Virus record (IMG/VR): IMGVR_UViG_3300045988_155182
DNA from: a virus
Lineage: Duplodnaviria > Heunggongvirae > Uroviricota > Caudoviricetes
DNA: 64,000 nt
Direction: 5' to 3' (one strand)
Made by a program: the position numbers and the translations under genes. The notes under the pieces are model-generated. The model saw only the letters and a list, made by a program, of their open reading frames with translations. It did not search any database and had not been told where the DNA came from. Shown here piece after piece: positions 8,048 through 48,480 of this stretch. Numbering within the stretch: the stretch's first letter is position 1; the number at the start of each line of letters is the position of its first letter.

Positions 8048-8572
8048 TCAAAAAGGCAAAATTCGTTCAACCCAATCGAACAAAACAACTATTTTTCTAC
8101 CGTTCTCGACACGTAGTGTAACCTGACAAGCATCTGCGCCTGCTGACACCCCCTCAATTTCACGGCCATCCGCCATGTACACCCTTATAGATTTGTTTGC
8201 TTTGTAGGCTTGGTTGCAAATTGCAAAAAAATCGCGGCGTGATGGCCGATTATCGACATAATCAGGGTGAACTGTTAGTCGACCTTTGAAATCGTGAGCG
8301 ATACTGTCAAACACACCTGATTCAATGGTACTAATGCGTTCAAGTGGGAGCCTTATACGATTTTCTTTGTCAAAAGGGGCTGGGCAAAGGTCAACTTTGT
8401 TACGAGATGGCATGAGGCCATAAACGTACATGCAAAACGCCTGACCATCTTCGAGAGTGACCCTTACAGGAATTTGTTCTCTGCGCCAGAACATCAGTAG
8501 TTTTTCAACGTTAGTGTAATCTCGCGGCCAGAGTTCAGCTTGGATACCGTAGGTAATATCTTTGGTTGTCAT
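8048..8572 (-). CDS. Hypothetical protein
   Basis: ORF track 8048..8608; internal Met gives start/stop coupling with the upstream lipoprotein gene. Confidence 0.45.
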   Translation of the reverse strand: MTTKDITYGIQAELWPRDYTNVEKLLMFWRREQIPVRVTLEDGQAFCMYVYGLMPSRNKVDLCPAPFDKENRIRLPLERISTIESGVFDSIAHDFKGRLTVHPDYVDNRPSRRDFFAICNQAYKANKSIRVYMADGREIEGVSAGADACQVTLRVENGRKIVVLFDWVERILPF

Positions 8573-8576
8573 GTCA

Positions 8577-9041
8577 TCACAGAGTTGTTGGCAGAATGTC
8601 GATGTCACCAGAATTGCTGGTGAACACCCTGAATGCTTTTGTGTCTCTATTCTTCAGAGTCGTTTCTCGCTCTTGACGAGCGGGGTTTAGAGCACATAAA
8701 CCTGCACCTTCAAGAGATGCACCCACAATTAATTCTCCGGCATTTAAATGGAAAGTCGCTTTTTCGCCTGTAGCCAGTTTTGCGACAGTTTCGCCGTTGA
8801 TGAAAATGGAAGCATCACATCCAGCTCCTACAAAACCTGTGTCTCTCATTACCACCAACGTAGCTGGCGCTGCGCTTTGATACTTGAACACTTTGGCCTG
8901 CGGTGCTGGTTTGGCGTCATGGATTGATATTGGGCGTGATTGGCACGCGGTAAGCATCAACACTGGTAACGTTAGTAGAGGGAGAAGCGAGTATTTCATG
9001 ATAGTTTTAGAACAGAAAGTGAACAGTATGGGAGACTTCAT
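8577..9041 (-). CDS. Putative lipoprotein (lipobox LTAC); candidate superinfection-exclusion protein
   Basis: ORF track; hydrophobic segment followed by L-T-A-C; start ambiguous (9041 has GGGAGA RBS; Met at 8999 gives a shorter, more typical signal peptide). Confidence 0.5.
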   Translation of the reverse strand: MKSPILFTFCSKTIMKYSLLPLLTLPVLMLTACQSRPISIHDAKPAPQAKVFKYQSAAPATLVVMRDTGFVGAGCDASIFINGETVAKLATGEKATFHLNAGELIVGASLEGAGLCALNPARQERETTLKNRDTKAFRVFTSNSGDIDILPTTL

Positions 9042-9348: not shown

Positions 9349-10908
9349 CTAATCTCGTTTCAGAACTCCAAAATCGAATGCTCCATCAATAGGCAATACA
9401 CCTTCTGCAAAGCCAGGTGTGGTGTCGATGATGTGTTTTCGCTCATAAGAGTGAGACAACAGGTATTTGTTGCTAATGTCAATGAAATCAGTGATAAAAC
9501 ACACGTTTGCCTGATTTTTTTTGGCTCGTAAGCCACGACCGACACGCTGTCTCATTTCAACTTCTGCTTTCCCACCACCAGCAAGAATGACCGCACCAAC
9601 GCTTGGCACATCAACACCAACATCCAGAATAGTCGAGCCTATTAAAACATCTATTTCACCAGACGCTAAACTATTCAGCTTTGCTTGCCTTGTCGTCTGG
9701 TTAGATTCCCCATAGATGAAATCAACTTTAAGACCTGACTCCTTCATCATCTCCATCAGGATTTGCCCGTGGCGTTTAAGACGAACCAGAGTCATGCAGT
9801 TGAGTGAATGTTGCTTATAAAGCAATGCCTCGCGCACTATGGCCTCGTTACGTCCCAAATTATACACGATCCCCAACTGATAAGCCTTTTGGTAGGCGGT
9901 GCTCATACCAACTCTAAAATTAAGGTGTTTGTTGGCAAGTTCCGCCTTGATTCTGACCTCGTCTGGCTTGTAAGCAACTTTATGATAAAGGAAGTACGGT
10001 TTTGCCAGAATGCCTCGATCAATCAGGTACTTTTCTGTGACTTTAATTTCAATTCGACCGGCCACAGCCATCAGACGCATGTTGGCTTCTGTAGAATCCT
10101 TCATGAACGGCGTGGCCGTAAGCGCCAGACGATAGTCTGCGTTCACACATAATCTGGCAATGTCATAGAAATTAGAGCCTGAAGACTCATGCGCTTCTTC
10201 CAGAATAAGCAGAGACACACTTGAAAGGAAGCGTTTCACTAGCTCCCGACGTTTGAGGTGGTAGCTCTTTTTATCTGGTGTTGCATCGCGTGGTGGTTCT
10301 TCAAGGAAACTTGCCAGAGTTTGAACTGTAGCGACGTTGATATGTCGTGATACCTGGAACTCACCCGAGCCAATGACTCCAACCTTTTGGTCTTTTAACC
10401 ACGGTTCGCCATTTTCGGCGCGGTAGTCGATGGATCTCTGGAAGTTTTCGGCCATTTGAAACATCAGAACAGAGCGGGTTGTTAAAAATAATGTCATTCG
10501 ACCGATACGTGCAGCTGCTTTGCAGGCAACGTTAGATTTCCCGCCACCAGTAGCGATCTGCGCAATCATCATTCCCTCTCGAACCAGTGTTTCCACAGTC
10601 TGATCCTGATACGCATAATCAGGATTGTATGGGAATGGGTTAACCGCCGGATTTGGTTTACCAAGCGCCGGGGCTTTGTCTTTGCGGATATGAACACATT
10701 TGATGCCCGCCTTGTTCAAGTTCGCCGCTACAGGCTTGGCAAAGCCAGCAGGGAACGAGTTTTTACTCCAGTTGAACATCGTGCTTGTGCCCTTCCAGTC
10801 GCCAGTCTCGACTTCGTAGCTCAACATTTGCTGCACCAGTTGCTTTACCTTGTCATCTGCGCCAGAAATAAGCGCATTTACTGCGTTAGATACAATCCGA
10901 ACAGTCAT
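9349..10908 (-). CDS. Superfamily 2 DEAD/DEAH-type helicase (519 aa)
   Basis: Motif I ATGGGKS, motif II LILEEAHE, motif III LTATP, motif VI QRVGRGLR in the translation. Confidence 0.75.
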   Translation of the reverse strand: MTVRIVSNAVNALISGADDKVKQLVQQMLSYEVETGDWKGTSTMFNWSKNSFPAGFAKPVAANLNKAGIKCVHIRKDKAPALGKPNPAVNPFPYNPDYAYQDQTVETLVREGMMIAQIATGGGKSNVACKAAARIGRMTLFLTTRSVLMFQMAENFQRSIDYRAENGEPWLKDQKVGVIGSGEFQVSRHINVATVQTLASFLEEPPRDATPDKKSYHLKRRELVKRFLSSVSLLILEEAHESSGSNFYDIARLCVNADYRLALTATPFMKDSTEANMRLMAVAGRIEIKVTEKYLIDRGILAKPYFLYHKVAYKPDEVRIKAELANKHLNFRVGMSTAYQKAYQLGIVYNLGRNEAIVREALLYKQHSLNCMTLVRLKRHGQILMEMMKESGLKVDFIYGESNQTTRQAKLNSLASGEIDVLIGSTILDVGVDVPSVGAVILAGGGKAEVEMRQRVGRGLRAKKNQANVCFITDFIDISNKYLLSHSYERKHIIDTTPGFAEGVLPIDGAFDFGVLKRD

Positions 10909-10952
10909 AAACCTCTTTCCTTAGTGCCTTTTGTATGTTATTTGGCTATTAT

Positions 10953-10972
10953 AATAAGTAAGTGATTACTTA
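10953..10972. repeat. TAAGTA palindrome variant (ataagtaagtgattacttag) in divergent promoter region
   Basis: Seen directly. Confidence 0.45.
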
Positions 10973-11671
10973 GTGGATTGTAGCAATAAAATGGATGTAA
11001 AAATCACGATTTTGCAGGTTGATGTTGCCAACCTTCGCCCGAATACCTGGAACACCAATTCGGTTGGTGCGCAGAATTTTGAAAAACTGAAAGGTTCTAT
11101 CGAAAAATTGGGCTTTTTTAAGCCAATTTTGGCTCGTGAACTTGAAGATGGATTTTTTGAAATCCTCGGCGGCGAACATCGCTGGCGTGCTGCTATTGAG
11201 CAAGGAATTTCAACGGTTCCGGTGCTTTCTGTGGGCAAAATTAGCGATGTCGTAGCTAAACAGATGTCACTGGTGGACAACGAGCGATACGGTGAAGACG
11301 ATCAAATCGCATTGCAACGCTTCATTGAAGAAATTCAGTCAGAACTTGACTATCAACTGTCTGAAATCGCCCCGTATGACGACGAAATCTCGATGGTTTT
11401 AGCAAAAGAGGCGGCAATCGACCTTGAAGCACTGGAGGCATTGTCTCGTGGTAGTGATGAGCCTGTCGATACCGACAAACGAGAGAAAACCGAACGTGTG
11501 GGTGCGGAACATCAGACCATGCGCTTCAAAGTAACCTTCGATGCGTCAGATCGTGTTGCAGAAACCATAAAAAACATCATCAAAGAGCAGGCTATTAACA
11601 CCGGTAATGAAATGGAGAACGCTGGTGAGGCTCTGGTGTGGCTGGTCGACTACTACAAGGAGCGTATGTAA
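10973..11671 (+). CDS. ParB/Srx N-terminal-domain protein 1
   Basis: GGEHRWRAA matches the ParB GxxRxxA box. Confidence 0.7.
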   Translation: MDCSNKMDVKITILQVDVANLRPNTWNTNSVGAQNFEKLKGSIEKLGFFKPILARELEDGFFEILGGEHRWRAAIEQGISTVPVLSVGKISDVVAKQMSLVDNERYGEDDQIALQRFIEEIQSELDYQLSEIAPYDDEISMVLAKEAAIDLEALEALSRGSDEPVDTDKREKTERVGAEHQTMRFKVTFDASDRVAETIKNIIKEQAINTGNEMENAGEALVWLVDYYKERM

Positions 11672-12339
11672 TGACCAAAAAGTTTGAAATCGTATATCGC
11701 GACCCGGCAGATCTTATTCCCTATGAGATGAATGCCAAAAAGCATGATGAACAGCAGATCCGAGATCTGGCCGCAGCCATTAAAAAGCGCGGATTTGACC
11801 AGCCAATTACGGTCGATAAGAACGACGTAATTATTACTGGCCACGGCCGCCGTGAGGCTGCAATTTTTGCTGGACTTGAGCGCGTACCGGTTATTGTTCG
11901 CGATGATCTCAGTGATGACGAGGTTCGTGCGAAGCGCCTTGAAGATAACCGACTTGCCAGCATTGATTACGATGCAATTAAGCTACAGAAAGAGCTTGAG
12001 TCGCTTGTTCTGGACGATATCGAGGTTTTCGGCTTTGAAGAGCGGGAGTTGAATGTTCTCGTTGGCAGCATGACAGAAGAAATGGACACCGACTCGCTAG
12101 TTATCGATCTGGGCGAAGAAACTAAACGACAGAAGGATGAACACACCGAGATCAGTCGTGAAGTTGCAGCGGAAGAAGTACGTGTTGTCGACGTATTGGG
12201 CTTTAAAACGCTCCCTGCTGGCTCTGCCATTGTTGTTGGTGATTTGCTTGCCCATATGGAAGAAATGACGGGAGAAAGCGGGGTAGACGCATTTGTGGCA
12301 TATGCGGAGAAGATCTCTTCCGGGGAGATGGCTGCATGA
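11671..12339 (+). CDS. ParB/Srx N-terminal-domain protein 2
   Basis: TGHGRREAA box; ATG overlaps the upstream stop (TAATG); ORF track 11638..12339. Confidence 0.7.
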   Translation: MTKKFEIVYRDPADLIPYEMNAKKHDEQQIRDLAAAIKKRGFDQPITVDKNDVIITGHGRREAAIFAGLERVPVIVRDDLSDDEVRAKRLEDNRLASIDYDAIKLQKELESLVLDDIEVFGFEERELNVLVGSMTEEMDTDSLVIDLGEETKRQKDEHTEISREVAAEEVRVVDVLGFKTLPAGSAIVVGDLLAHMEEMTGESGVDAFVAYAEKISSGEMAA

Positions 12340-13001
12340 ACAAATACATCATCAACATATCGTTTCAGACACGCGTAAATAAAACCACGCGCACGTTGGA
12401 AATCGCTGAGTCGTTCGGGCTTGGCCTGGACGAAAAAGAGTGGACGCTTTACGACAATCTGGAGCTGGAAGTGAAGCAGGGCGATGTGGTGTACATCACC
12501 GGCCAATCCGGTTCCGGCAAATCCGTTGTGCTGCGCGAGTTGCAACGACAGATGAAGGATGAAGGGCTGTCTGTAGCCTCCATCGATGATTTTACCTTCG
12601 ATAATGAGGTTAACGTCATCGATCAGTTGGGCAAAACGACCAGTGATGCGCTTGGGTTGTTATCTATGGCTGGTCTGAACGATGCATATCTGTTTGTTCG
12701 CAAGCCTTCTGAAATGTCAGACGGCCAGAAATATCGTCTCAAGATTGCCAAACTGATTGAGTCAGGCGCTAAAGTGTGGGCTGCTGACGAGTTCGGCGCT
12801 GTTCTCGACCGTGTAACCGCTCAGGTTGTGGCGTCTAACCTCCAGCGTGCCGCGCGAAAGGTTGGTGCGACGGTAATGGTGGCGACGACTCACGAAGACC
12901 TGAAGAACGCGCTGCGCCCGGATATGCAGATCACCAAGCACTACAAAGAACGCGTGAAGGTGGAATATCACAATGGTAGTCATGATGAGGTCCCTTCATG
13001 A
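12336..13001 (+). CDS. P-loop ATPase, ABC-like (Walker A GQSGSGKS, signature-like SDGQKYR, Walker B VWAADEF)
   Basis: Motifs in the translation; ATGA overlap with the upstream gene. Confidence 0.6.
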   Translation: MNKYIINISFQTRVNKTTRTLEIAESFGLGLDEKEWTLYDNLELEVKQGDVVYITGQSGSGKSVVLRELQRQMKDEGLSVASIDDFTFDNEVNVIDQLGKTTSDALGLLSMAGLNDAYLFVRKPSEMSDGQKYRLKIAKLIESGAKVWAADEFGAVLDRVTAQVVASNLQRAARKVGATVMVATTHEDLKNALRPDMQITKHYKERVKVEYHNGSHDEVPS

Positions 13002-13888
13002 CGGACATCATCATTAAACGCTACCGCCCTGAAGAGTTTCCGCGTCATCTGGACTTTCTGGAGCGAATGACTGTTACAAAGGGAACTGTAGAGGACTGGC
13101 ACGCTCTTAAGTCGCTTCACTACAAAACAGACGGCAAACCTTTCGCGCCAACTTACTATCGCTGCGAACTTGATGACCGTCTGGTGGGCGTCGTGGTTAT
13201 GGCTTACCCGAAACTACTGTTGGCACCTCGCCACCGCATGTTTCCTAAGTTGAAACCAACCACTAATACCACCGTGGCTAACCAGTACTGGGGTCGGTAC
13301 GTGAATAACAACTTTGCGGTGATCAGTCGCTCAGTTGTGGATACTCAGTATCGTGGCGTAGGCGTCTCTTATCGAATGATTAACCTGGTTAGCAGGATGC
13401 ATGACCGGCCAATCATTGAGATCCAGTCCTCGATGAGCAAATACAATCCCTTCGCCATGAAAGCAGGGTTTAAGTTCATCCGCCCTGAGCGACCGAAGAG
13501 CTATGAAAGTGCACTGCGTGTATTCCAGCGCCATTTTCGTTCCGACCCGGGTGATAACGAGGCGATCGTTAAAGAGTTGTTCGCTATGAGCGAGTCTCGT
13601 CGTCGCCGTGCACTGCGTGATCTGGTGGCGGACTACCACAAGAACAGTTCCCTGGCAAAAGCTGGGCGGAATCGTGGCACGACGATTCAGGACATTGCCG
13701 ACAGTCTGGTGGACGAGGCCAGCATTGTGAAGCTGCTCAAGGACATTCACAACCTGAGCTTTACGTCTCCGTTGTATGGTGTGTATCGAAACCCTGACTT
13801 TGGTCGTCGACTGCCTGACACGCTGCCACTGCTGGCATTCGACAAACAACCTTTGGATAAACCGTTAGAAATTGCTTTACCGGCATAA
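12998..13888 (+). CDS. Hypothetical protein with possible GNAT-like acetyltransferase core (YRGVGVS)
   Basis: Weak motif resemblance only. Confidence 0.4.
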   Translation: MTDIIIKRYRPEEFPRHLDFLERMTVTKGTVEDWHALKSLHYKTDGKPFAPTYYRCELDDRLVGVVVMAYPKLLLAPRHRMFPKLKPTTNTTVANQYWGRYVNNNFAVISRSVVDTQYRGVGVSYRMINLVSRMHDRPIIEIQSSMSKYNPFAMKAGFKFIRPERPKSYESALRVFQRHFRSDPGDNEAIVKELFAMSESRRRRALRDLVADYHKNSSLAKAGRNRGTTIQDIADSLVDEASIVKLLKDIHNLSFTSPLYGVYRNPDFGRRLPDTLPLLAFDKQPLDKPLEIALPA

Positions 13889-13897
13889 GGATTTGCC

Positions 13898-14164
13898 ATG
13901 ACGTTAACCGACAAACAAAAGGACATCATCAAAACGCTCAATCTCGGTTATGAGCGAGGTCATCTACTTGACCTGGACGAATTGCTTGAAGTTTTGCCGT
14001 ACAAGACAACCAAGCAAAGTATCCAGTTCTCAATTCGCGCTCTGATAAAAAAGGGGCTGGTGGAGAAAGGGCATACGCGCCAACGCAGTGACAATCGCTA
14101 TCACCGCCGGACTCTTGGGTTAACCACTTTAGGTCGAGCCAAAGCGAAGTTACTGGTGATGTAA
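13898..14164 (+). CDS. Small basic protein, possible winged-helix DNA-binding protein
   Basis: ORF track; composition only. Confidence 0.35.
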   Translation: MTLTDKQKDIIKTLNLGYERGHLLDLDELLEVLPYKTTKQSIQFSIRALIKKGLVEKGHTRQRSDNRYHRRTLGLTTLGRAKAKLLVM

Positions 14165-14188: not shown

Positions 14189-14245
14189 CCTGCATCTGTA
14201 TATATAAATAATAAGTAACTTATTAAATATATACGGAAGCAGGCT
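14189..14245. repeat. Long imperfect palindrome (cctgcatctgtatatat...ataagtaacttat...atatatacggaagcagg) centred on a TAAGTA motif
   Basis: Near-copy at 48427-48480; seen directly. Confidence 0.55.
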
Positions 14246-14278
14246 TCGTAAGACATGCCAGACCTAATTAAACACCCC

Positions 14279-14322
14279 AGAAAACAAGTTGGTTAGCAGA
14301 TGCAGTAAACAAGTTGTTTTAG
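14279..14322 (+). promoter_or_regulatory. Double early operator (agaaaacaagttggtt ... taaacaagttgttttag)
   Basis: Motif family member upstream of the terminase small subunit gene. Confidence 0.45.
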
Positions 14323-14359
14323 AGCGCATGGACGCGCTCTGTGTGTTTTAGAGGGATCT

Positions 14360-14992
14360 ATGACGGTCGAAAAAGACGAGGTAAAAACTCGCCTGACACC
14401 AGCGGAGTGGGCCGAAGCTGAAGCCAAATGGACGTCAGGCGAATATACACTCTCAAAGCTGGAGGAAGAGTACGGCATTCGTCGTGAAACACTCTCCAGA
14501 CATTTCAAAAAGCGAGGATTAGAGAAAGGCGCGGACTCTGTTGGGAAGATGGTTCGTGAGTCTCTTAAATCTGACGCAGAGCTTCGCGCTAAAGCCCGTG
14601 CGGAAAAGATAGAAGAACGTCGTACACGTTATGACGGCTGGGCGTATGCGTTGGGGCAGATGGTGATGGTCGAAGTCACTACGGCCAAACGTGAGGGTAA
14701 GCCTTTAGGGGCGATTGAGGATTCTCTCAAGAGCTTACAGAGAGCCAGTAATACCCTTGCAAAATGCTTTGAAGTTTCGTCCAAAGCATTGGGTATGGAT
14801 CATGCGGAAAATGACGAGGAAGAAATTCCGAATCTGGTATTTGGTGAGCTTACGCCTTCCCAGGTGGCGAAATTACGTCAGGAAGACGACGAGCCTGAAA
14901 TCATCGATGACGAATTGCTTGAGACGTTGGAAGAAGAAGCTCTAAGCGAATTTGATGCGACAGATGATGGAAGTGAAGGGGAGGACGAATAA
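14360..14992 (+). CDS. Terminase small subunit (N-terminal HTH, acidic C-terminus)
   Basis: Position directly upstream of terminase large; HTH-like YTLSKLEEEYGIRRETLSRHF. Confidence 0.6.
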   Translation: MTVEKDEVKTRLTPAEWAEAEAKWTSGEYTLSKLEEEYGIRRETLSRHFKKRGLEKGADSVGKMVRESLKSDAELRAKARAEKIEERRTRYDGWAYALGQMVMVEVTTAKREGKPLGAIEDSLKSLQRASNTLAKCFEVSSKALGMDHAENDEEEIPNLVFGELTPSQVAKLRQEDDEPEIIDDELLETLEEEALSEFDATDDGSEGEDE

Positions 14993-16248
14993 TGGCAATC
15001 CCGTCCTCGCTCAGTCTTGTGCAACTGCATTCTGGACAGATGAAAGTCTTCCAGTCTCCGCATCGATTTAAAGTTGTTTGTGCTGGTCGACGCTGGGGAA
15101 AATCCCGGTTGTCGATCTCCACTATTATTCGTGCGGCGGCAAAGGAAAAAAAGCAAAGAGTCTGGTATGTCGCTCCTACTTACCAGATGGCTCGCCAGAT
15201 TTTGTGGGACGATCTACAGGAAGTTCTGCCTCGTAAGTGGGTTAGGAAAAAGAACGACACCACGATGACAATCGTGTTGAAGAACGGTTCGGAGATCGCC
15301 CTCAAAGGTGCTGATAAGCCTGACACTCTGCGCGGCGTAGCGTTGCATTTTGTAGTGCTTGATGAATTTCAGGATATGAAGGCTGACACCTGGTACAAGG
15401 TGTTACGACCTACTCTTTCATCGACACGCGGCGGTGCACTGATCATTGGTACGCCAAAAGGCTTCTCGGAATTTCACAAACTGTGGACTATAGGCCAGAA
15501 CGTAGAGCTGCAAAGAAAGGGACAGTGGAAGAGCTGGCAGTTTGTAACTGCCGATTCTCCGTTTGTACCTACGGCGGAAATTGAAGCTGCTAAGAACGAT
15601 ATGGACCCGAAATCGTTCGCTCAGGAGTACCTGGCGAGCTTTGAGAACATGTCCGGGCGCGTTTACTACCCGTTCGATCGTAACGTGCATGTAAAACCGC
15701 TTCAGTTCAACCCTCGGTTGCCTATATGGGTAGGGCAGGACTTCAACATTGACCCGATGTCTTCAGTAATTTTGCAACCTCAGCCAAATGGTGAGCTATG
15801 GGCAATTGATGAATTGGTGCTCTTTTCCTCTAACACGGCAGAGGTTTGTGATGAGCTTGAGAGACGCTTCTGGCGCTGGAAATCACAGATAACGGTATTT
15901 CCAGATCCGGCAGGTGCTTATCGCCAACATGCTCGCGGGGAGTCTGACGTCGACATATTCAAAGAGAAGGGATTCTTACGTGTCGATTATTCGAAAAAGC
16001 ACCCGCCAATTGCGGATCGTGTTAATGCTGTTAACCGAATGCTGATGACCGCATCTGGAGATATCCGGCTGTATATCGATCCGAAGTGCAAGCATTTGAT
16101 TGATTCACTGGAAAAAGTCATCTACAAGCCTGGAACACGAGATATGGATAAGACAGGTGGCATTGAGCATAGTGCAGACGCATTGGGCTATCCAGTACAT
16201 CGTAGGTATCCAGTCAAAAACCGTGTTATTCTTGGTGGTTCTCGATAG
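14992..16248 (+). CDS. Terminase large subunit
   Basis: Walker A-like VVCAGRRWGKS, Walker B VVLDEF; gene order. Confidence 0.8.
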   Translation: MAIPSSLSLVQLHSGQMKVFQSPHRFKVVCAGRRWGKSRLSISTIIRAAAKEKKQRVWYVAPTYQMARQILWDDLQEVLPRKWVRKKNDTTMTIVLKNGSEIALKGADKPDTLRGVALHFVVLDEFQDMKADTWYKVLRPTLSSTRGGALIIGTPKGFSEFHKLWTIGQNVELQRKGQWKSWQFVTADSPFVPTAEIEAAKNDMDPKSFAQEYLASFENMSGRVYYPFDRNVHVKPLQFNPRLPIWVGQDFNIDPMSSVILQPQPNGELWAIDELVLFSSNTAEVCDELERRFWRWKSQITVFPDPAGAYRQHARGESDVDIFKEKGFLRVDYSKKHPPIADRVNAVNRMLMTASGDIRLYIDPKCKHLIDSLEKVIYKPGTRDMDKTGGIEHSADALGYPVHRRYPVKNRVILGGSR

Positions 16249-16274: not shown

Positions 16275-17849
16275 ATGGAATTGAACGACAAACAAATTAA
16301 GGATCTGGTGGCGCGACGCCACCCGGAATACGAAAAGAAAAAAGAACATTGGGACTTCCTCGCCAGCACTTACGCTGGCGGGCGTGGTTGGTTTACAGAC
16401 AATATCTTTCGTTACTTTAAAGAGGGAGATCAGGAGTTTAAGGAGCGAGTTGAACGTGCTTATCGCTTCAACCACACTCGTGAGGTGGTAAACCTCATCA
16501 ACAAATATCTCTTTAAAGAAGACATTCATAGAAATATCGAAGAGGCACCAGAGCAGATCCGCAATTTCTGGAAACGTGCGACTCGCCAGAATGCCTCTAT
16601 TGACTCATTTATGGCCGCTATTGATTTGCAGTCGTCTATTTACGGTCGCATATGGGTTGTTGTCGATAGCACGATGAGTGGTGATGTTGAGTCAGTAGCT
16701 GACGAGAAAAAGAAAGATGCTCGCGCCTACGCCTACTGGATTTCACCTCAGCAAATGCTGGATGTGGCATGGGACGACGACGGGAATATGTTGTGGGCGT
16801 TAATTGTGGAAGTCGCTCGTGATGACGCAGATCCTTTTACTTCTACAGGTCAGGAATACCAACGTTATCGTCTGTGGACACAAAACGAGTGGTATCTGTT
16901 CCGTGAGGAAGTGAAGAAGGGCGCTGGTGGAGCAGGTCGCCGTCAGGCAAAAGTTATTTTAGAGGATAGCGGTGAGCATAATCTCGGCGTAGTTCCTGTG
17001 TTTCCTGTTGATTGTATTGGAGAAAGTGAATCACCGTATTTCAGCCCATCGTTGATCGATGATATCGCTTATCTTGATCGTGCGGTTGCAAACTATCTGT
17101 CAAACCTTGATGCCATTATTCAGGATCAGACATTTAGCCAGTTGGCTATACCGGTACAGTCGCTTTTACCTGGTGATGAAAACCACACTAAAGTGCTTGA
17201 AATGGGCACAAAGCGAGTCTTCACCTACGATTCTGAAGGTGGAAACCAGCCGTTTTATCTGTCACCAGACCCGAAACAAGCTCAGATGATCATCACTACG
17301 ATTAAGACGGTGATTAACGAAATCTACCATTCAGTTGGTGTAGCTGGTGAGCGAACGAAGCAGGACAACGCACAGGGAATCGATAATTCATCTGGTGCCG
17401 CAAAAATGTATGACTTCCAGCGTGTAAATAGCTTGCTTGTCACAAAAGCAGAGCGTCTGGAAAGGGCTGAACGCCAAATCATGCTACTGGTTGCGAAATG
17501 GATGGGGGTAGATCTGGACGAAGACCACTCTTTAATTGCATATCCAGAAAGTTTCGATATTCGTGGCCTTACTGATGAATTTTCTGTTGCCGAGAAACTG
17601 TCATTACTTCAGGCACCGGACTCTGTACGTCGTCACCAGATGGAAATGCTTATTGAGAAGATTTTCCCGAACATTACTGAGGCGATGAAAAAGGAATTTG
17701 ATAAAGATCTCTTGAATTTTCCTCCAAAAAATGATCTAAATACCCTTGAAAATAAGTCAGTACTTACTTATGATCGTGGTGCAGCCCAAGAAAGCGGGCA
17801 AGATCAACCCCGAGGGAATGGGGACTCATCTACTCAAGAGAACGAGTGA
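16275..17849 (+). CDS. Portal protein (524 aa)
   Basis: Size and position directly after terminase large. Confidence 0.7.
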   Translation: MELNDKQIKDLVARRHPEYEKKKEHWDFLASTYAGGRGWFTDNIFRYFKEGDQEFKERVERAYRFNHTREVVNLINKYLFKEDIHRNIEEAPEQIRNFWKRATRQNASIDSFMAAIDLQSSIYGRIWVVVDSTMSGDVESVADEKKKDARAYAYWISPQQMLDVAWDDDGNMLWALIVEVARDDADPFTSTGQEYQRYRLWTQNEWYLFREEVKKGAGGAGRRQAKVILEDSGEHNLGVVPVFPVDCIGESESPYFSPSLIDDIAYLDRAVANYLSNLDAIIQDQTFSQLAIPVQSLLPGDENHTKVLEMGTKRVFTYDSEGGNQPFYLSPDPKQAQMIITTIKTVINEIYHSVGVAGERTKQDNAQGIDNSSGAAKMYDFQRVNSLLVTKAERLERAERQIMLLVAKWMGVDLDEDHSLIAYPESFDIRGLTDEFSVAEKLSLLQAPDSVRRHQMEMLIEKIFPNITEAMKKEFDKDLLNFPPKNDLNTLENKSVLTYDRGAAQESGQDQPRGNGDSSTQENE

Positions 17850-43834: not shown

Positions 43835-44086
43835 ATGCTAGGCAGCCTGATGACAAAGCTAAAAGTTGCTTTGATTACGCTGGCTGCCGTTCTTTTCGTT
43901 CTGGTCGGCGCTTACACGATGGGCGGAAATGCGGCGCGACGAGCAATGGAAGAGAAGGCAAAACAGGAAGACAGGAAACGACTTCAAAACACAGTGAAAG
44001 TGGTGAATGAGACGAGCAGTAAAATACGTCAGAAAGATGCTTCTGCCGTTCATCGTGAGTTGTATGATAAGTGGGTGCGTCATTAA
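43835..44086 (+). CDS. i-spanin (Rz-like): N-terminal TM plus charged coiled-coil
   Basis: LKVALITLAAVLFVLVGAY TM followed by K/E/R-rich segment. Confidence 0.6.
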   Translation: MLGSLMTKLKVALITLAAVLFVLVGAYTMGGNAARRAMEEKAKQEDRKRLQNTVKVVNETSSKIRQKDASAVHRELYDKWVRH

Positions 44087-44222
44087 ACCACAAACCACCA
44101 GCGTGTTGTTCTGCGATGGGGCTGAGCCTATCTATATCAGCAATAATGATGTAATGACTGAAGAAACCGAACGCCAAATCCTTTTTCACAATACGATGGG
44201 AGAGAGGGTTTGTGGTTGGTGA
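44007..44222 (+). CDS. o-spanin (Rz1-like lipoprotein) overlapping the 3' end of the i-spanin gene in another frame
   Basis: Signal peptide with lipobox ISGC; classic overlapped Rz/Rz1 arrangement. Confidence 0.55.
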   Translation: MRRAVKYVRKMLLPFIVSCMISGCVIKPQTTSVLFCDGAEPIYISNNDVMTEETERQILFHNTMGERVCGW

Positions 44223-44254
44223 TGTCGAAGTTCCCCTCAAATGAGGGGAACACA

Positions 44255-44776
44255 TTATTCTTCGAACAATTTTTCGATAGATTTTGTAGGATAGAACAAA
44301 GAACGCTCGTTGTTACCAACCAGCTGGATAAAGCCTAAACTTTTATAAAACGCCTTGGCTTTGTCATTTAACGCCTCAACGAAAAGTCCATGAATGCCTA
44401 CAGCAAGAGATGCATTGTACACAACGCGCATTGCATGTGTTACAAGCATTGAGCCAAATCCTTGACCTTGAAGGGACTTGTCCAAAGCCAGCCTACCCAA
44501 AGTAACACTTGGAACATTCCGATAAGGAACCTTCTTTTGTTTGCTTCTTGAAGGTAAGGACTCCTTTTCAAAACAACTACCTGACAAAGTGTAATATCCT
44601 AACACTTTTGGCCTTTCTTCTTGAGTGCAAAGCACATAAGCACGAAGAATTTTTCCCTCATGCTGCCTTTTTAAGTGGTTGGCTAAAAAGGCGTTTAGTG
44701 ACTCTTCGCCGCAATCAAAACCGTTTAGATCATAATCTTTCTCTCCAGAGAAAATCTCTATCGTTGTATTGCTCAC
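44255..44776 (-). CDS. GNAT-family acetyltransferase toxin (TacT/AtaT/KacT-like)
   Basis: GNAT motif RLALDKSLQGQGFG; about 170 aa; paired with upstream RHH gene. Confidence 0.75.
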   Translation of the reverse strand: MSNTTIEIFSGEKDYDLNGFDCGEESLNAFLANHLKRQHEGKILRAYVLCTQEERPKVLGYYTLSGSCFEKESLPSRSKQKKVPYRNVPSVTLGRLALDKSLQGQGFGSMLVTHAMRVVYNASLAVGIHGLFVEALNDKAKAFYKSLGFIQLVGNNERSLFYPTKSIEKLFEE

Positions 44777-45371: not shown

Positions 45372-46040
45372 ATGACCAAGATCTTTGTGGTTGGCGGCAC
45401 AAAGGGCGGGCCTGGCAAATCCACCGTTGCCCAGCAAATTGCCGTTTGCCTGAAAGTCAAAAAGAAGAAGAAGGTTTATATTACCGATATAGATATTCAG
45501 CGCACGACAACGAGCTGGTGTGAAGACCGTCGACAGAACGAAGACCTTGAGCTGATTCCTTTTGCATACGTTCAGGATGACATCATTAAGCACCTAAAAT
45601 CGCTTCAGGGTAGAGCTGAGTTTGTAGTGGTAGATGCTGGTGGCTTCGACTCCGAAATTCAGCGACAAGCGATGCTGATGGCCGACGTTATCATTATCCC
45701 GCTTCGTCCTAAGCGTCGTGATTTGAAATCTCTGCGTGATATCGATCCTATTATCGACAATGTTCGTAATGTAAACGATAAAGTGAAGGTCCGCGCGGTC
45801 ATGAACCAGTGTCCGGCTTTGCCATCACAAGTGTCTCGCATTCTGGCGGCTAAAGAGATTGTTGAGACGTTTGGCATCGAGTCTGCGCCAGTCAATCTAT
45901 ATAACCGCAACGTCTATGATGATGCGGAAGAGTCTGGTCGTTCTATCTTTGAAATGACCGGTAGCGAGCGCGACAAAAAGGCGGAAGCCGAGTTTGAAGA
46001 ATTTGTAGATTATCTGTTGAGTCTGGAGGAAAAAGAATAA
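45372..46040 (+). CDS. parA: ParA partition ATPase (deviant Walker A)
   Basis: VVGGTKGGPGKST deviant Walker A typical of ParA/MinD/Soj. Confidence 0.8.
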   Translation: MTKIFVVGGTKGGPGKSTVAQQIAVCLKVKKKKKVYITDIDIQRTTTSWCEDRRQNEDLELIPFAYVQDDIIKHLKSLQGRAEFVVVDAGGFDSEIQRQAMLMADVIIIPLRPKRRDLKSLRDIDPIIDNVRNVNDKVKVRAVMNQCPALPSQVSRILAAKEIVETFGIESAPVNLYNRNVYDDAEESGRSIFEMTGSERDKKAEAEFEEFVDYLLSLEEKE

Positions 46041-46399
46041 TGTCCATGAAAATGGGTGACCTAGCAAAGCGCAAAGAGCCTGATGCACCGGCTAAGAACA
46101 CAACTCCTTTGCGCCAACCAGTCAGACCACAGGGACGCCCGACTCGTGGCAAAGAGAAAATTAAAAGCCGCACAATGTCACTGGAGGACGAATACTTCGA
46201 ACTGCTGGAGATGATGAAGTTCATCCCTCGCTTCGAGAAGTTCACTCGTTCTGACGTGATTCGTGCTGCTATTTTCCATCTTGCGGAGAAGACACCGCAG
46301 GAAATCGAGGACATCGTGAAACTTAACGAGGCGATCACCGCTGCCGATGTCACGATGCGTACCGATGAAATCAAACGCGAGTTGATGAAGAAAGGTTAA
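46040..46399 (+). CDS. Small partition partner, ParG/RHH-type centromere-binding protein (putative)
   Basis: ATGA overlap with parA; basic N-terminus and RHH-like C-terminus. Confidence 0.5.
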   Translation: MSMKMGDLAKRKEPDAPAKNTTPLRQPVRPQGRPTRGKEKIKSRTMSLEDEYFELLEMMKFIPRFEKFTRSDVIRAAIFHLAEKTPQEIEDIVKLNEAITAADVTMRTDEIKRELMKKG

Positions 46400-48426: not shown

Positions 48427-48480
48427 CCTGCTTCTGTATATAAATACTAAGTTACTTATTATTATTTATACGGAAGCAGG
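48427..48480. repeat. Long imperfect palindrome (copy of the 14189-14245 element) centred on TAAGTTACTTA
   Basis: Both copies share the ctgtatat(a)taaata / tatacggaagcagg flanks around a central TAAGT(A/T)ACTTA core. Confidence 0.55.

Follow-up and report, generated by a model that had tools for sequence, protein, structure and literature searches.

The five-gene module considered here lies on the + strand at positions 10973-14164, upstream of the terminase genes, in a 64,000-nucleotide stretch of Caudoviricetes DNA (IMG/VR record IMGVR_UViG_3300045988_155182; the whole stretch is referred to below as the window); it encodes two ParB-like proteins (ParB1 and ParB2), an ATP-binding cassette (ABC) ATPase, a protein resembling Gcn5-related N-acetyltransferases (GNAT) and a probable winged helix-turn-helix (wHTH) protein. 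Closest to it among described systems are the fused ABC-acetyltransferases of the COG2401/MK0520 type, which have the same ABC motif set, the same order (ATPase, then GNAT) and the blocks FHY/HYK, R-x-x-G-x-G/A, E-x-x-S/A-x-M, NPF-x-x-AG and C-terminal Y-x-W/Y-x-NP in common with the module. Unlike in the fused type, the two parts are encoded by separate, translationally coupled genes whose junction is a hot spot for insertions, and two ParBs and the wHTH protein are added. Placement with the fused COG2401-type family names no mechanism; experimental work on a ParB/ABC/GNAT module or on a COG2401-type fusion was not found in the literature.

The ParB side has three relatives. Phage thymidine dioxygenases (5mYOX clade E) need a ParB encoded by an adjacent gene for activation on DNA, and these ParBs consist of a nucleotide-binding N domain and a C-terminal domain, without a DNA-binding domain (bioRxiv 10.1101/2025.08.14.668559; PNAS PMC13229309). 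The ParBs of the module are likewise short, have no recognisable helix-turn-helix (HTH) and are encoded next to an enzyme; the partner, however, is an ABC ATPase plus GNAT and not an Fe/2OG dioxygenase, two ParB paralogues are present, and most ABC-GNAT homologues have no ParB nearby. ParB-methyltransferase fusions (phrog_498; PADLOC model MTase_II, PDLC03229), often encoded beside terminase genes in temperate phages, have the ParB2-type N domain (GHGR and DN motifs) in common with the module, whereas in ParB2 this domain is stand-alone and is followed by an acidic helical region, without a methyltransferase domain. Bce_0392 is such a fusion of ParB and DNA methyltransferase (PMC5512222). ParABS, Noc and KorB proteins share the ParB_N fold, box II GxxRxxA and the box III Asn with the module ParBs and are the closest solved structures, but in the module ParA is not a neighbour, neither an HTH nor a parS was identified, and both ParBs are acidic.

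On the acyltransferase side, TmcA/NAT10 follows the same logic of NTPase coupled to GNAT and acetylates RNA cytidine; its ATPase is helicase-like and not of ABC type, and the likeness is an analogy only. Mom of phage Mu has the GNAT fold and uses charged tRNA to modify adenine in DNA (PMC13219725); it has no sequence-level relationship to the GNAT-like protein and works alone, without an ATPase or ParB partner.

Split form of a fused ABC-GNAT protein

ATPase and GNAT-like genes: A profile of the GNAT-like family was searched against 1.84 billion representative proteins and 894 relatives were obtained; many were 450-500 amino acids (aa) long and matched in their C-terminal half (E 1e-27 to 1e-14). 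An ABC_tran domain stood directly N-terminal to the GNAT match in every one of the ten long remote homologues scanned (10/10), and because of this N-terminal ATPase the two genes of the window are the split form of a single-chain ABC ATPase-acetyltransferase. Homologues of both halves carry the IMG name "ABC-type ATPase with predicted acetyltransferase domain", and the annotation of Escherichia phage Cyrano is alike; a homologue search with the ATPase itself gave only close relatives among the 120 matches listed. The PHROG families and the COG-style name were known; the link of the split form to the fused, terminase-adjacent ABC-GNAT is new.

ABC-type ATPase: The earlier note had called this product an ABC-like P-loop ATPase, which was upheld by a match well above the Pfam cut-off for ABC_tran (PF00005, 25 bits; Table 1) and by a complete ABC motif set (Walker A GQSGSGKS, signature MSDGQ, Walker B AADEF, H-loop TTHED). 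It is a complete stand-alone nucleotide-binding domain, and its motifs are invariant in the fused relatives. The database label "ABC transporter" is misleading for it: the identity was rejected, as none of the five products matched a transporter or permease family and what is conserved beside the ATPase is a GNAT-fold domain, which is soluble.

GNAT-like protein: The GNAT domain (approximately residues 1-165) is followed by a family-specific C-terminal domain (170-296). The note had proposed a possible GNAT with a weak motif; the Pfam GNAT match of the window protein is below the cut-off (E 0.037, 14.4 bits vs 23.6), remote fused relatives pass that of Acetyltransf_1 (P0357, 25.6 vs 20.7; P0274, 21.5 vs 20.7), and the fold is clearly that of a GNAT. 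Motif A (R119-x-x-G122) is invariant in 35 homologues and reads YRGVGVS in the window and YRGIGLG in the fused relatives; motif B (NPFxxKAGF) is also invariant. With the GNAT fold, intact motifs A and B and the complete ABC motif set, the enzyme looks catalytically intact. A fold search of BFVD with the GNAT model gave matches at a generic GNAT level, with a viral protein of 695 aa, annotated as an amidoligase, at rank 38; no relative with a solved structure was obtained in a PDB sequence search with the family profile. PADLOC and NCBIfam gave generic ATPase and ParB matches only, and nothing for the GNAT-like protein. A GNAT toxin-antitoxin system (TacT, AtaT) was also rejected: such systems consist of a small GNAT (approximately 160-175 aa) with an adjacent ribbon-helix-helix or DUF1778 antitoxin, whereas here the protein has 296 aa with an extra C-terminal domain, and its neighbours are an ABC ATPase and a wHTH protein.

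Genomic context of the fused gene: In viral contigs (IMG/VR), the gene directly upstream of the fused gene, on the same strand, encodes a Terminase_6N-type large terminase (TerL) in 31/76 loci, and TerL stands within three genes in 41/76. In GTDB genomes, 79 of the best 80 loci belong to Bathyarchaeia, Nitrososphaeria or related archaeal metagenome-assembled genomes; among these 80, TerL stands within four genes in 39 (position -1 in 24, -2 in 1, +1 to +3 in 14), and the TerL-proximal cases fall into at least three different gene orders. Two Nitrososphaerales-type loci (L207, L216) read ABC-GNAT, ParB, small gene, TerL; a Bacillota prophage and two related viral contigs read ABC-GNAT, Amidoligase_2, 90-aa gene, TerL, portal. 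As most of these loci have no ParB gene nearby, the conserved core is ABC-GNAT, which is terminase-linked in bacterial and archaeal viruses only distantly related to each other, with ParB as an accessory that recurs.

Further fusions and neighbours: ParB-ABC-GNAT triple fusions were found in P0316/L161, in L151 and in four archaeal loci; assignment of the fused ParB to the ParB2 type was rejected, since direct comparison puts it (P0316 domain) closer to ParB1. Single open reading frames (ORFs) join PolB (family B exonuclease and polymerase) to ABC-GNAT: L089, 3448-7380, 1310 aa; L120, 3580-7362 (= P0327), 1260 aa. The N-terminus of the homologue P0320 is DnaA-like, and the ABC domain of P0284 is interrupted by a LAGLIDADG intein; P0301 was listed together with these fusion and intein homologues (L089, L120, P0320, P0284). 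In L246 the split pair brackets an S-adenosylmethionine (SAM) methyltransferase and a sulfotransferase-like gene and adjoins a D12 (Dam-type) DNA methylase, with no terminase nearby.

Contig ends: An asymmetry was observed in the IMG/VR loci L086-L165, where 37/76 contigs end less than 1 kb downstream of the fused gene (17 of them inside its 3' part) and 2/76 less than 1 kb upstream; GTDB contigs have no such asymmetry (15 vs 10). The downstream neighbours of the fused gene are highly variable in the IMG/VR contigs. A genome terminus, a hypervariable region or the calling of provirus boundaries may lie behind the asymmetry; only the contigs ending inside the fused gene are accounted for by detection bias.

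The two ParB-like proteins

ParB1 and ParB2: Both contain the ParB/Srx N domain that had been read from the boxes GGEHRWRAA (ParB1) and TGHGRREAA (ParB2), both score above the Pfam cut-off for ParB_N (PF02195, 26.3 bits), and their N domains are 33% identical over 116 aa. Both are acidic (isoelectric point, pI, 4.5; ParB1 4.55), their C-terminal halves more so (pI 4.1-4.3). The Pfam scan matched ParB_N only, and no HTH was recognisable in either protein. ParB1 has His in place of the first Arg of GERR, and both have Asp in place of Glu before the box III Asn.

ParB1: This is the canonical CTPase-like type, more so than ParB2 (GGEHRWRAA, VDNERYG); its nearest PDB sequences are Spo0J, ParB and Noc, and where it aligns with the HTH region of Spo0J, the basic residues that make the contacts are missing. 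The upstream start codon is ATG in Salmonella phage SSU5 and in the Klebsiella relative; the Cyrano annotation uses the downstream ATG.

ParB2: The motifs are NAKKH, GHGR and EDNR, and GHGRREAA and EDNR are invariant across 36 ParB2 homologues. After its own PHROG, the next-best profile matches are the ParB-methyltransferase families phrog_498 and PADLOC MTase_II, the latter match falling in the N-terminal, ParB-like portion of a model for type II methyltransferases. In the AlphaFold model (AF2, pLDDT 82) the N domain is confident; beyond residue 100 it consists of low-confidence acidic helices and a conserved C-terminal helical bundle. Foldseek with this model gave CTP-binding Noc, ParB and KorB as top matches (E 2e-7 to Noc and ParB-CDP).

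Comparison with partition cassettes: The earlier note had called the layout non-standard both for partition and for terminase genes, and this agrees with an ATPase of ABC type and acidic ParBs without a recognisable HTH; no homologue of the module proteins with a demonstrated partition or terminase-accessory role was found. A ParABS system was rejected: the neighbouring ATPase is of ABC type with an LSGGQ-like signature, ParA lies 31 kb away, and no HTH is recognisable in either ParB. Nothing links the palindrome at 14189-14243 to ParB1 or ParB2 as a parS.

Operon, conservation and surrounding sequences

Source element: By its sequence the window belongs to an SSU5-type phage-plasmid. Over the 3.2-kb region, identity reaches 99.0% with Escherichia phage Cyrano and 85% with Salmonella phage SSU5, and 772 PLSDB plasmids are matched (Klebsiella, Escherichia, Enterobacter, Yersinia (pMT1), Salmonella, Citrobacter). 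With a longer query, the whole block from ParB1 through TerL was kept in 735/792 plasmid records; an apparent excess of ABC-GNAT DNA over TerL DNA (744 vs 198 records), which the longer query disproves, was a megablast word-size artefact.

Gene layout: Five + strand ORFs were found upstream of the terminase, as the earlier note had it (Table 1), and the translational coupling that it described is visible at the junctions, which read TAATG (11669-11673), ATGA (12336-12339) and ATGA (12998-13001); the wHTH gene is preceded by a 9-nt gap with an AAGGA Shine-Dalgarno sequence. All five products fall into PHROG families (723, 930, 293, 886 and 900; E 1e-45 to 1e-164), and because of these families and dN/dS values of 0.01-0.07 the five genes are not chance ORFs. 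The small basic protein of the note is the wHTH candidate, with matches to LexA_DNA_bind, Lrs14 and Sta1 winged helices, all weak. A 195-bp gap separates its gene from the TerS-like gene, after which TerL and the portal gene come next. On the other side, the divergent UvsW-like helicase gene is the final gene of a leftward replication/recombination cluster.

Conservation: The ratios of nonsynonymous to synonymous substitution (dN/dS) against SSU5 and the Klebsiella phage (GNAT-like, 0.012; ABC, 0.025; ParB2, 0.04; ParB1, 0.055-0.07; wHTH, 0.06) indicate strong purifying selection on all five genes. Protein identity to the Klebsiella phage: GNAT-like, 97%; TerL, 95%; portal and helicase, 91%. 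In three distant loci (L082-L084: a marine contig, an Ectothiorhodospira genome and a 3.3-Mb contig) the order is kept at 42-47% protein identity: helicase (-) / ParB, ParB, ABC, 0-3 small inserts, GNAT-like, wHTH, gap, TerS, TerL, portal. The same divergent helicase flanks the module there, and the wHTH gene, always the next after the GNAT-like gene in SSU5-type relatives, is conserved. Hidden Markov models (HMMs) of the wHTH and TerS-like proteins gave nothing in the archaeal or Firmicutes loci, and these two genes are therefore lineage-specific. The ABC/GNAT-like junction (12998/13001) is a cargo insertion hot spot, free of inserts in the window; it holds one gene of 84 aa in SSU5 and of 183 aa in the Klebsiella phage, one to three small genes elsewhere and five in L246. 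The cargo genes are unrelated and include Phage_gp49_66, a RyR-domain protein, the SAM methyltransferase and the sulfotransferase-like protein.

Table 1. Coordinates of the module, of its surroundings and of related features in other loci (positions in the window unless a locus is given).
Feature	Position	Strand	Matches and remarks
UvsW-like DEAD/ResIII helicase, divergent	9349..10908	-	Pfam ResIII, DEAD, Helicase_C; phrog_16
Divergent intergenic region, probable promoter/operator	10909..10990	.
ParB1	10973 (GTG) or 10991 (ATG)..11671	+	Pfam ParB_N 49.9 bits; phrog_723 E 2e-79
ParB2	11671..12339	+	Pfam ParB_N 35.2 bits; phrog_930 E 1e-112
ABC-type ATPase	12336..13001	+	Pfam ABC_tran 50 bits; phrog_293; phrog_11143 (fused form)
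GNAT-like protein, 296 aa, pI 9.8	12998..13888	+
Probable wHTH protein, 88 aa, pI 10.2	13898..14164	+	phrog_900 E 2e-45
AT-rich 55-bp palindrome, GC-rich outer arms	14189..14243	.	25 nt past wHTH gene; bounds operon
Terminator-like hairpin and T-run	14320..14341	+	directly before TerS ribosome-binding site
TerS-like DNA-binding protein	14360-14992	+	phrog_867
Large terminase TerL	14992-16248	+	Pfam Terminase_6N, Terminase_6C
TAAGTAA-N4-TTACTTA sites	10955, 14205/14212, 17753, 29749, 36668, 48441, 48569, 52003, 52878, 55356, 57760
ABC/GNAT-like junction insert, L323	4494-4748
ABC/GNAT-like junction insert, L324	6995-7546
ABC/GNAT-like junction insert, L082	7705-7995
ABC/GNAT-like junction insert, L083	6961-7999
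ABC/GNAT-like junction insert, L084	7598-7997
ABC/GNAT-like junction insert, L246	2348-5925
PF12224 Amidoligase_2, L166	7510-8400		between fused ABC-GNAT and TerL
PF12224 Amidoligase_2, L086	3645-4517		between fused ABC-GNAT and TerL
PF12224 Amidoligase_2, L087	7522-8385		between fused ABC-GNAT and TerL

Sequences upstream of ParB1: TATAAT (10950-10955) abuts the palindrome TAAGTAAGTGATTACTTA (10955-10972), and the two are the probable promoter and operator of the module. A consensus promoter scan called no promoter at 10909..10990. Only the left half-site of TAAGTAAGTGATTACTTA is conserved in SSU5 and Klebsiella, and a conserved operator is not claimed for it. The motif TAAGTAA-N4-TTACTTA (up to 2 mismatches) occurs at 12 sites in the window against 0.16 expected; most of those checked are in, or close to, gaps that precede + strand operons, and the site at 17753 is inside the portal gene, towards its 3' end. 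The motif likely serves as a genome-wide promoter/operator element. As it precedes structural operons (scaffold, minor tail, tail fibre), replication operons (DnaB, primase, ligase) and ParB1, the module appears to share the general lytic-gene control of the element; dating of the operon as "late" by this motif was ruled out, the same motif preceding replication genes.

Sequences between module and TerS: The 55-bp palindrome reads CCTGC(W)TCTG-TATATAAATAATAAGTAACTTATTAAATATATAC-GGAAGCAGG and is present in two copies in the window, the second (approximately 48427-48480) ahead of the phrog_2500/DnaB/primase operon. Its position between module and TerS is conserved, and the GenBank records of SSU5 and Cyrano both start and end inside it. 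Near-identical copies were found in plasmids pD228 (L326, 3001-3047; an IncY cointegrate) and p3RM15115 (L327, 3001-3066; an unrelated 62-kb E. albertii plasmid, with the copy beside a RelE/ParE pair). Because it is duplicated at 48.4 kb and present in unrelated plasmids, the palindrome is not a unique cos/pac site; its candidate roles are those of an operator, a terminator, a centromere-like site or a genome end. Downstream of it, the direct repeats CAGAAAACAAGTTGGTT and CAGTAAACAAGTTGTTT (14278-14294 and 14303-14319) are followed by the GC-stem hairpin, whose stem is conserved and whose loop varies in SSU5 and Klebsiella. Repeats and hairpin look like a regulated terminator/attenuator ahead of the packaging operon, and the hairpin suggests that module and packaging genes are transcribed as two units, each under its own control.

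Elsewhere in the window: The separate ParA/ParG cassette of the earlier note holds as to ParA (45372-46040, MipZ/ParA-type) and not as to the label "ParG", the 119-aa partner being without a family match; the cassette spans 45372-46399 and a DUF2971 protein comes next, the stretch running to 47163. Just upstream of it, a small canonical GNAT gene (44255-44776, -; Acetyltransf_1, 33 bits) abuts a 126-aa ORF (43875-44255, -); at the homologous position pD228 has an annotated AtaT toxin and DUF1778 antitoxin, and the two genes probably form a GNAT toxin-antitoxin pair that has nothing to do with the module. The gene at 8048-8608 (-) matches Pfam Flag1_repress, "Repressor of phase-1 flagellin" (FljA-like), with E 4e-84.

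Proposed function and its alternatives

Proposed mechanism: The five genes would form one lytic-cycle operon building an ATP-gated acyltransferase complex, with the ABC ATPase and the basic GNAT-fold protein as its catalytic core. ATP-driven dimerisation is general in ABC ATPases; here, ATP binding would dimerise the ABC domains and so place two acyl-donor-loaded GNAT domains on the target. The signature of motifs A and B points to acyl-CoA as the donor. By analogy, the acidic ParBs would be clamps or activators gated by a nucleoside triphosphate (NTP), probably CTP, that load the enzyme on DNA or switch it on there, and the wHTH protein would serve site recognition or regulation. The enzyme could modify either a DNA base or a protein bound to DNA. 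We infer, in this scheme, that dimerisation is driven by ATP, what the acyl donor is, that the ParBs bind NTP, that the parts interact physically, and what the target is.

Standing of this proposal: An ATP-gated acyltransferase that acts on replicated phage DNA or DNA-bound proteins before or during packaging, with the ParBs as NTP-gated loaders or activators, is tentatively favoured, at clearly below an even chance, because the partners of ABC-GNAT handle DNA, the enzyme looks catalytically intact and its evolution is like that of a core gene. The recurring partners are TerL, ParB, PolB, a DnaA-like domain and a DNA methylase, all of which handle DNA; the contrast in pI (ParBs, 4.5; GNAT-like protein, 9.8) was also counted in its favour, and Mom of Mu demonstrates that a GNAT fold is able to modify DNA (PMC13219725). 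Several points weigh against the proposal. The choice of DNA or a DNA-bound protein as target is inferred from context, and the fold similarity of the GNAT-like protein to Mom is no better than to dozens of GNATs. GNATs act mostly on proteins and small molecules. A modified base was not found in the literature on SSU5-type virion DNA, and to our knowledge none has been reported. The ATPase is nearest to transporter-type nucleotide-binding domains, not to the DNA-clamping SMC/Rad50 types; CTP binding by ParB1 and ParB2 is a prediction, and ParB1 has His at the first Arg of GERR. A ParB gene lies within 6 kb of the fused ABC-GNAT in only 3/76 viral and 8/80 archaeal loci, and since most of these loci lack it, ParB is not an obligate partner. 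Much of the TerL adjacency may be inherited synteny inside one archaeal virus lineage.

Alternatives close to packaging: The module could instead be a direct packaging cofactor, mechanical or concerned with site choice, without covalent modification of DNA; for example, the ParBs would nick or mark pac/cos, the wHTH protein would bind the palindrome, and ABC-GNAT would regulate assembly of terminase and portal. Such a role would fit the constant place of the module directly upstream of TerS/TerL in SSU5-type genomes, even at 42-47% identity, the adjoining of fused ABC-GNAT and TerL in archaeal and Firmicutes viruses, the core-gene-level conservation, and the conserved palindrome between module and TerS, inside which the SSU5 and Cyrano records are linearised; some ParB domains are, moreover, nicking nucleases (review PMC5512222). 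Yet it is hard to see what a GNAT domain with intact cofactor motifs would do in a purely mechanical machine, and the window already encodes a TerS-like protein. No terminase lies near the fusions to PolB and to the DnaA-like domain or near the L246 methyltransferase cluster, and a palindrome that is duplicated and shared with unrelated plasmids makes no unique cos/pac. This explanation is considered unlikely. Modification of virion or assembly proteins is distinctly improbable: there, the ATP-dependent GNAT would acylate or peptide-tag capsid, portal, scaffold or terminase, the ParBs being unrelated accessory NTPases. The module does head the morphogenesis cluster, the PF12224 amidoligase stands between ABC-GNAT and TerL in Firmicutes prophages, and one BFVD match of the GNAT model is the 695-aa amidoligase-annotated protein, but the ParB, PolB and DnaA-like fusions point to DNA and not to capsid proteins.

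Alternatives away from packaging: Counter-defence genes are usually variable and fast-evolving, whereas conservation of the module exceeds that of TerL and its synteny extends across phyla, which tells against a role in anti-defence or host takeover; in such a role, defence proteins, tRNA or metabolites would be acetylated, or the ParBs would act as NTP-regulated DNases or anti-restriction factors, a role that has been proposed for the ParB domains of polyvalent proteins. The PADLOC matches are not meaningful here, being to generic ATPases and, in a type II methyltransferase model, to its ParB-like N-terminus. This role is held to be quite unlikely, even with the nearest non-self families of ParB2 being ParB-methyltransferase fusions, the ABC and GNAT families being classed in PHROGs as "moron, auxiliary metabolic gene and host takeover", the ABC/GNAT junction being a hot spot for small cargo genes, and ParB and GNAT domains being discussed as conflict effectors (PMC5512222). 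A function in the plasmid state (second partition, silencing or copy-control system, in the manner of ParB/KorB) is very improbable. Two ParB-fold proteins with KorB and Noc among their best structural matches, and a conserved palindrome beside the operon with a second copy ahead of replication genes, could be taken for it, but there is no ParA-type partner, a separate ParA cassette is present at 45372-46399, both ParBs are acidic and without a detectable HTH, and ABC-GNAT homologues stand beside TerL in integrated prophages and archaeal viruses. Retention of the block in Yersinia pestis pMT1 is uninformative either way, as pMT1 keeps TerL too.

Wider proposal: The acyltransferase reading may be extended to the whole family, in a form that we regard as rather unlikely as it stands: ABC-GNAT would be an ancient, near-core, terminase-linked enzyme of bacterial and archaeal tailed viruses, performing a hitherto undescribed ATP-driven acylation of the packaging substrate, to which some lineages (SSU5, pHCM2 and pMT1 among them) would have added ParB-type CTP clamps as DNA-loading subunits. 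This acylation would either yield a new kind of modified base in phage DNA or, as an acetylation, strip HU, Alba or histones from the DNA ahead of the terminase.

Meaning for SSU5-type phage-plasmids and tailed viruses: SSU5-type phage-plasmids, including Salmonella Typhi pHCM2-like and Yersinia pestis pMT1-like elements, are common in clinical Enterobacteriaceae. The block is carried by approximately 790 PLSDB records and conserved at least at the level of TerL, yet its products are labelled "ParB partition protein", "ABC transporter" and "hypothetical". Through the relation between split and fused forms, what looked like a peculiarity of one locus becomes a widespread part of the biology of tailed viruses. 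If the complex acts on DNA or chromatin before packaging, it would be a new class of enzyme for phage DNA modification or packaging, and would give the second case, after the 5mYOX dioxygenases, of ParB-fold NTP switches that serve as enzyme activators and not in partition.

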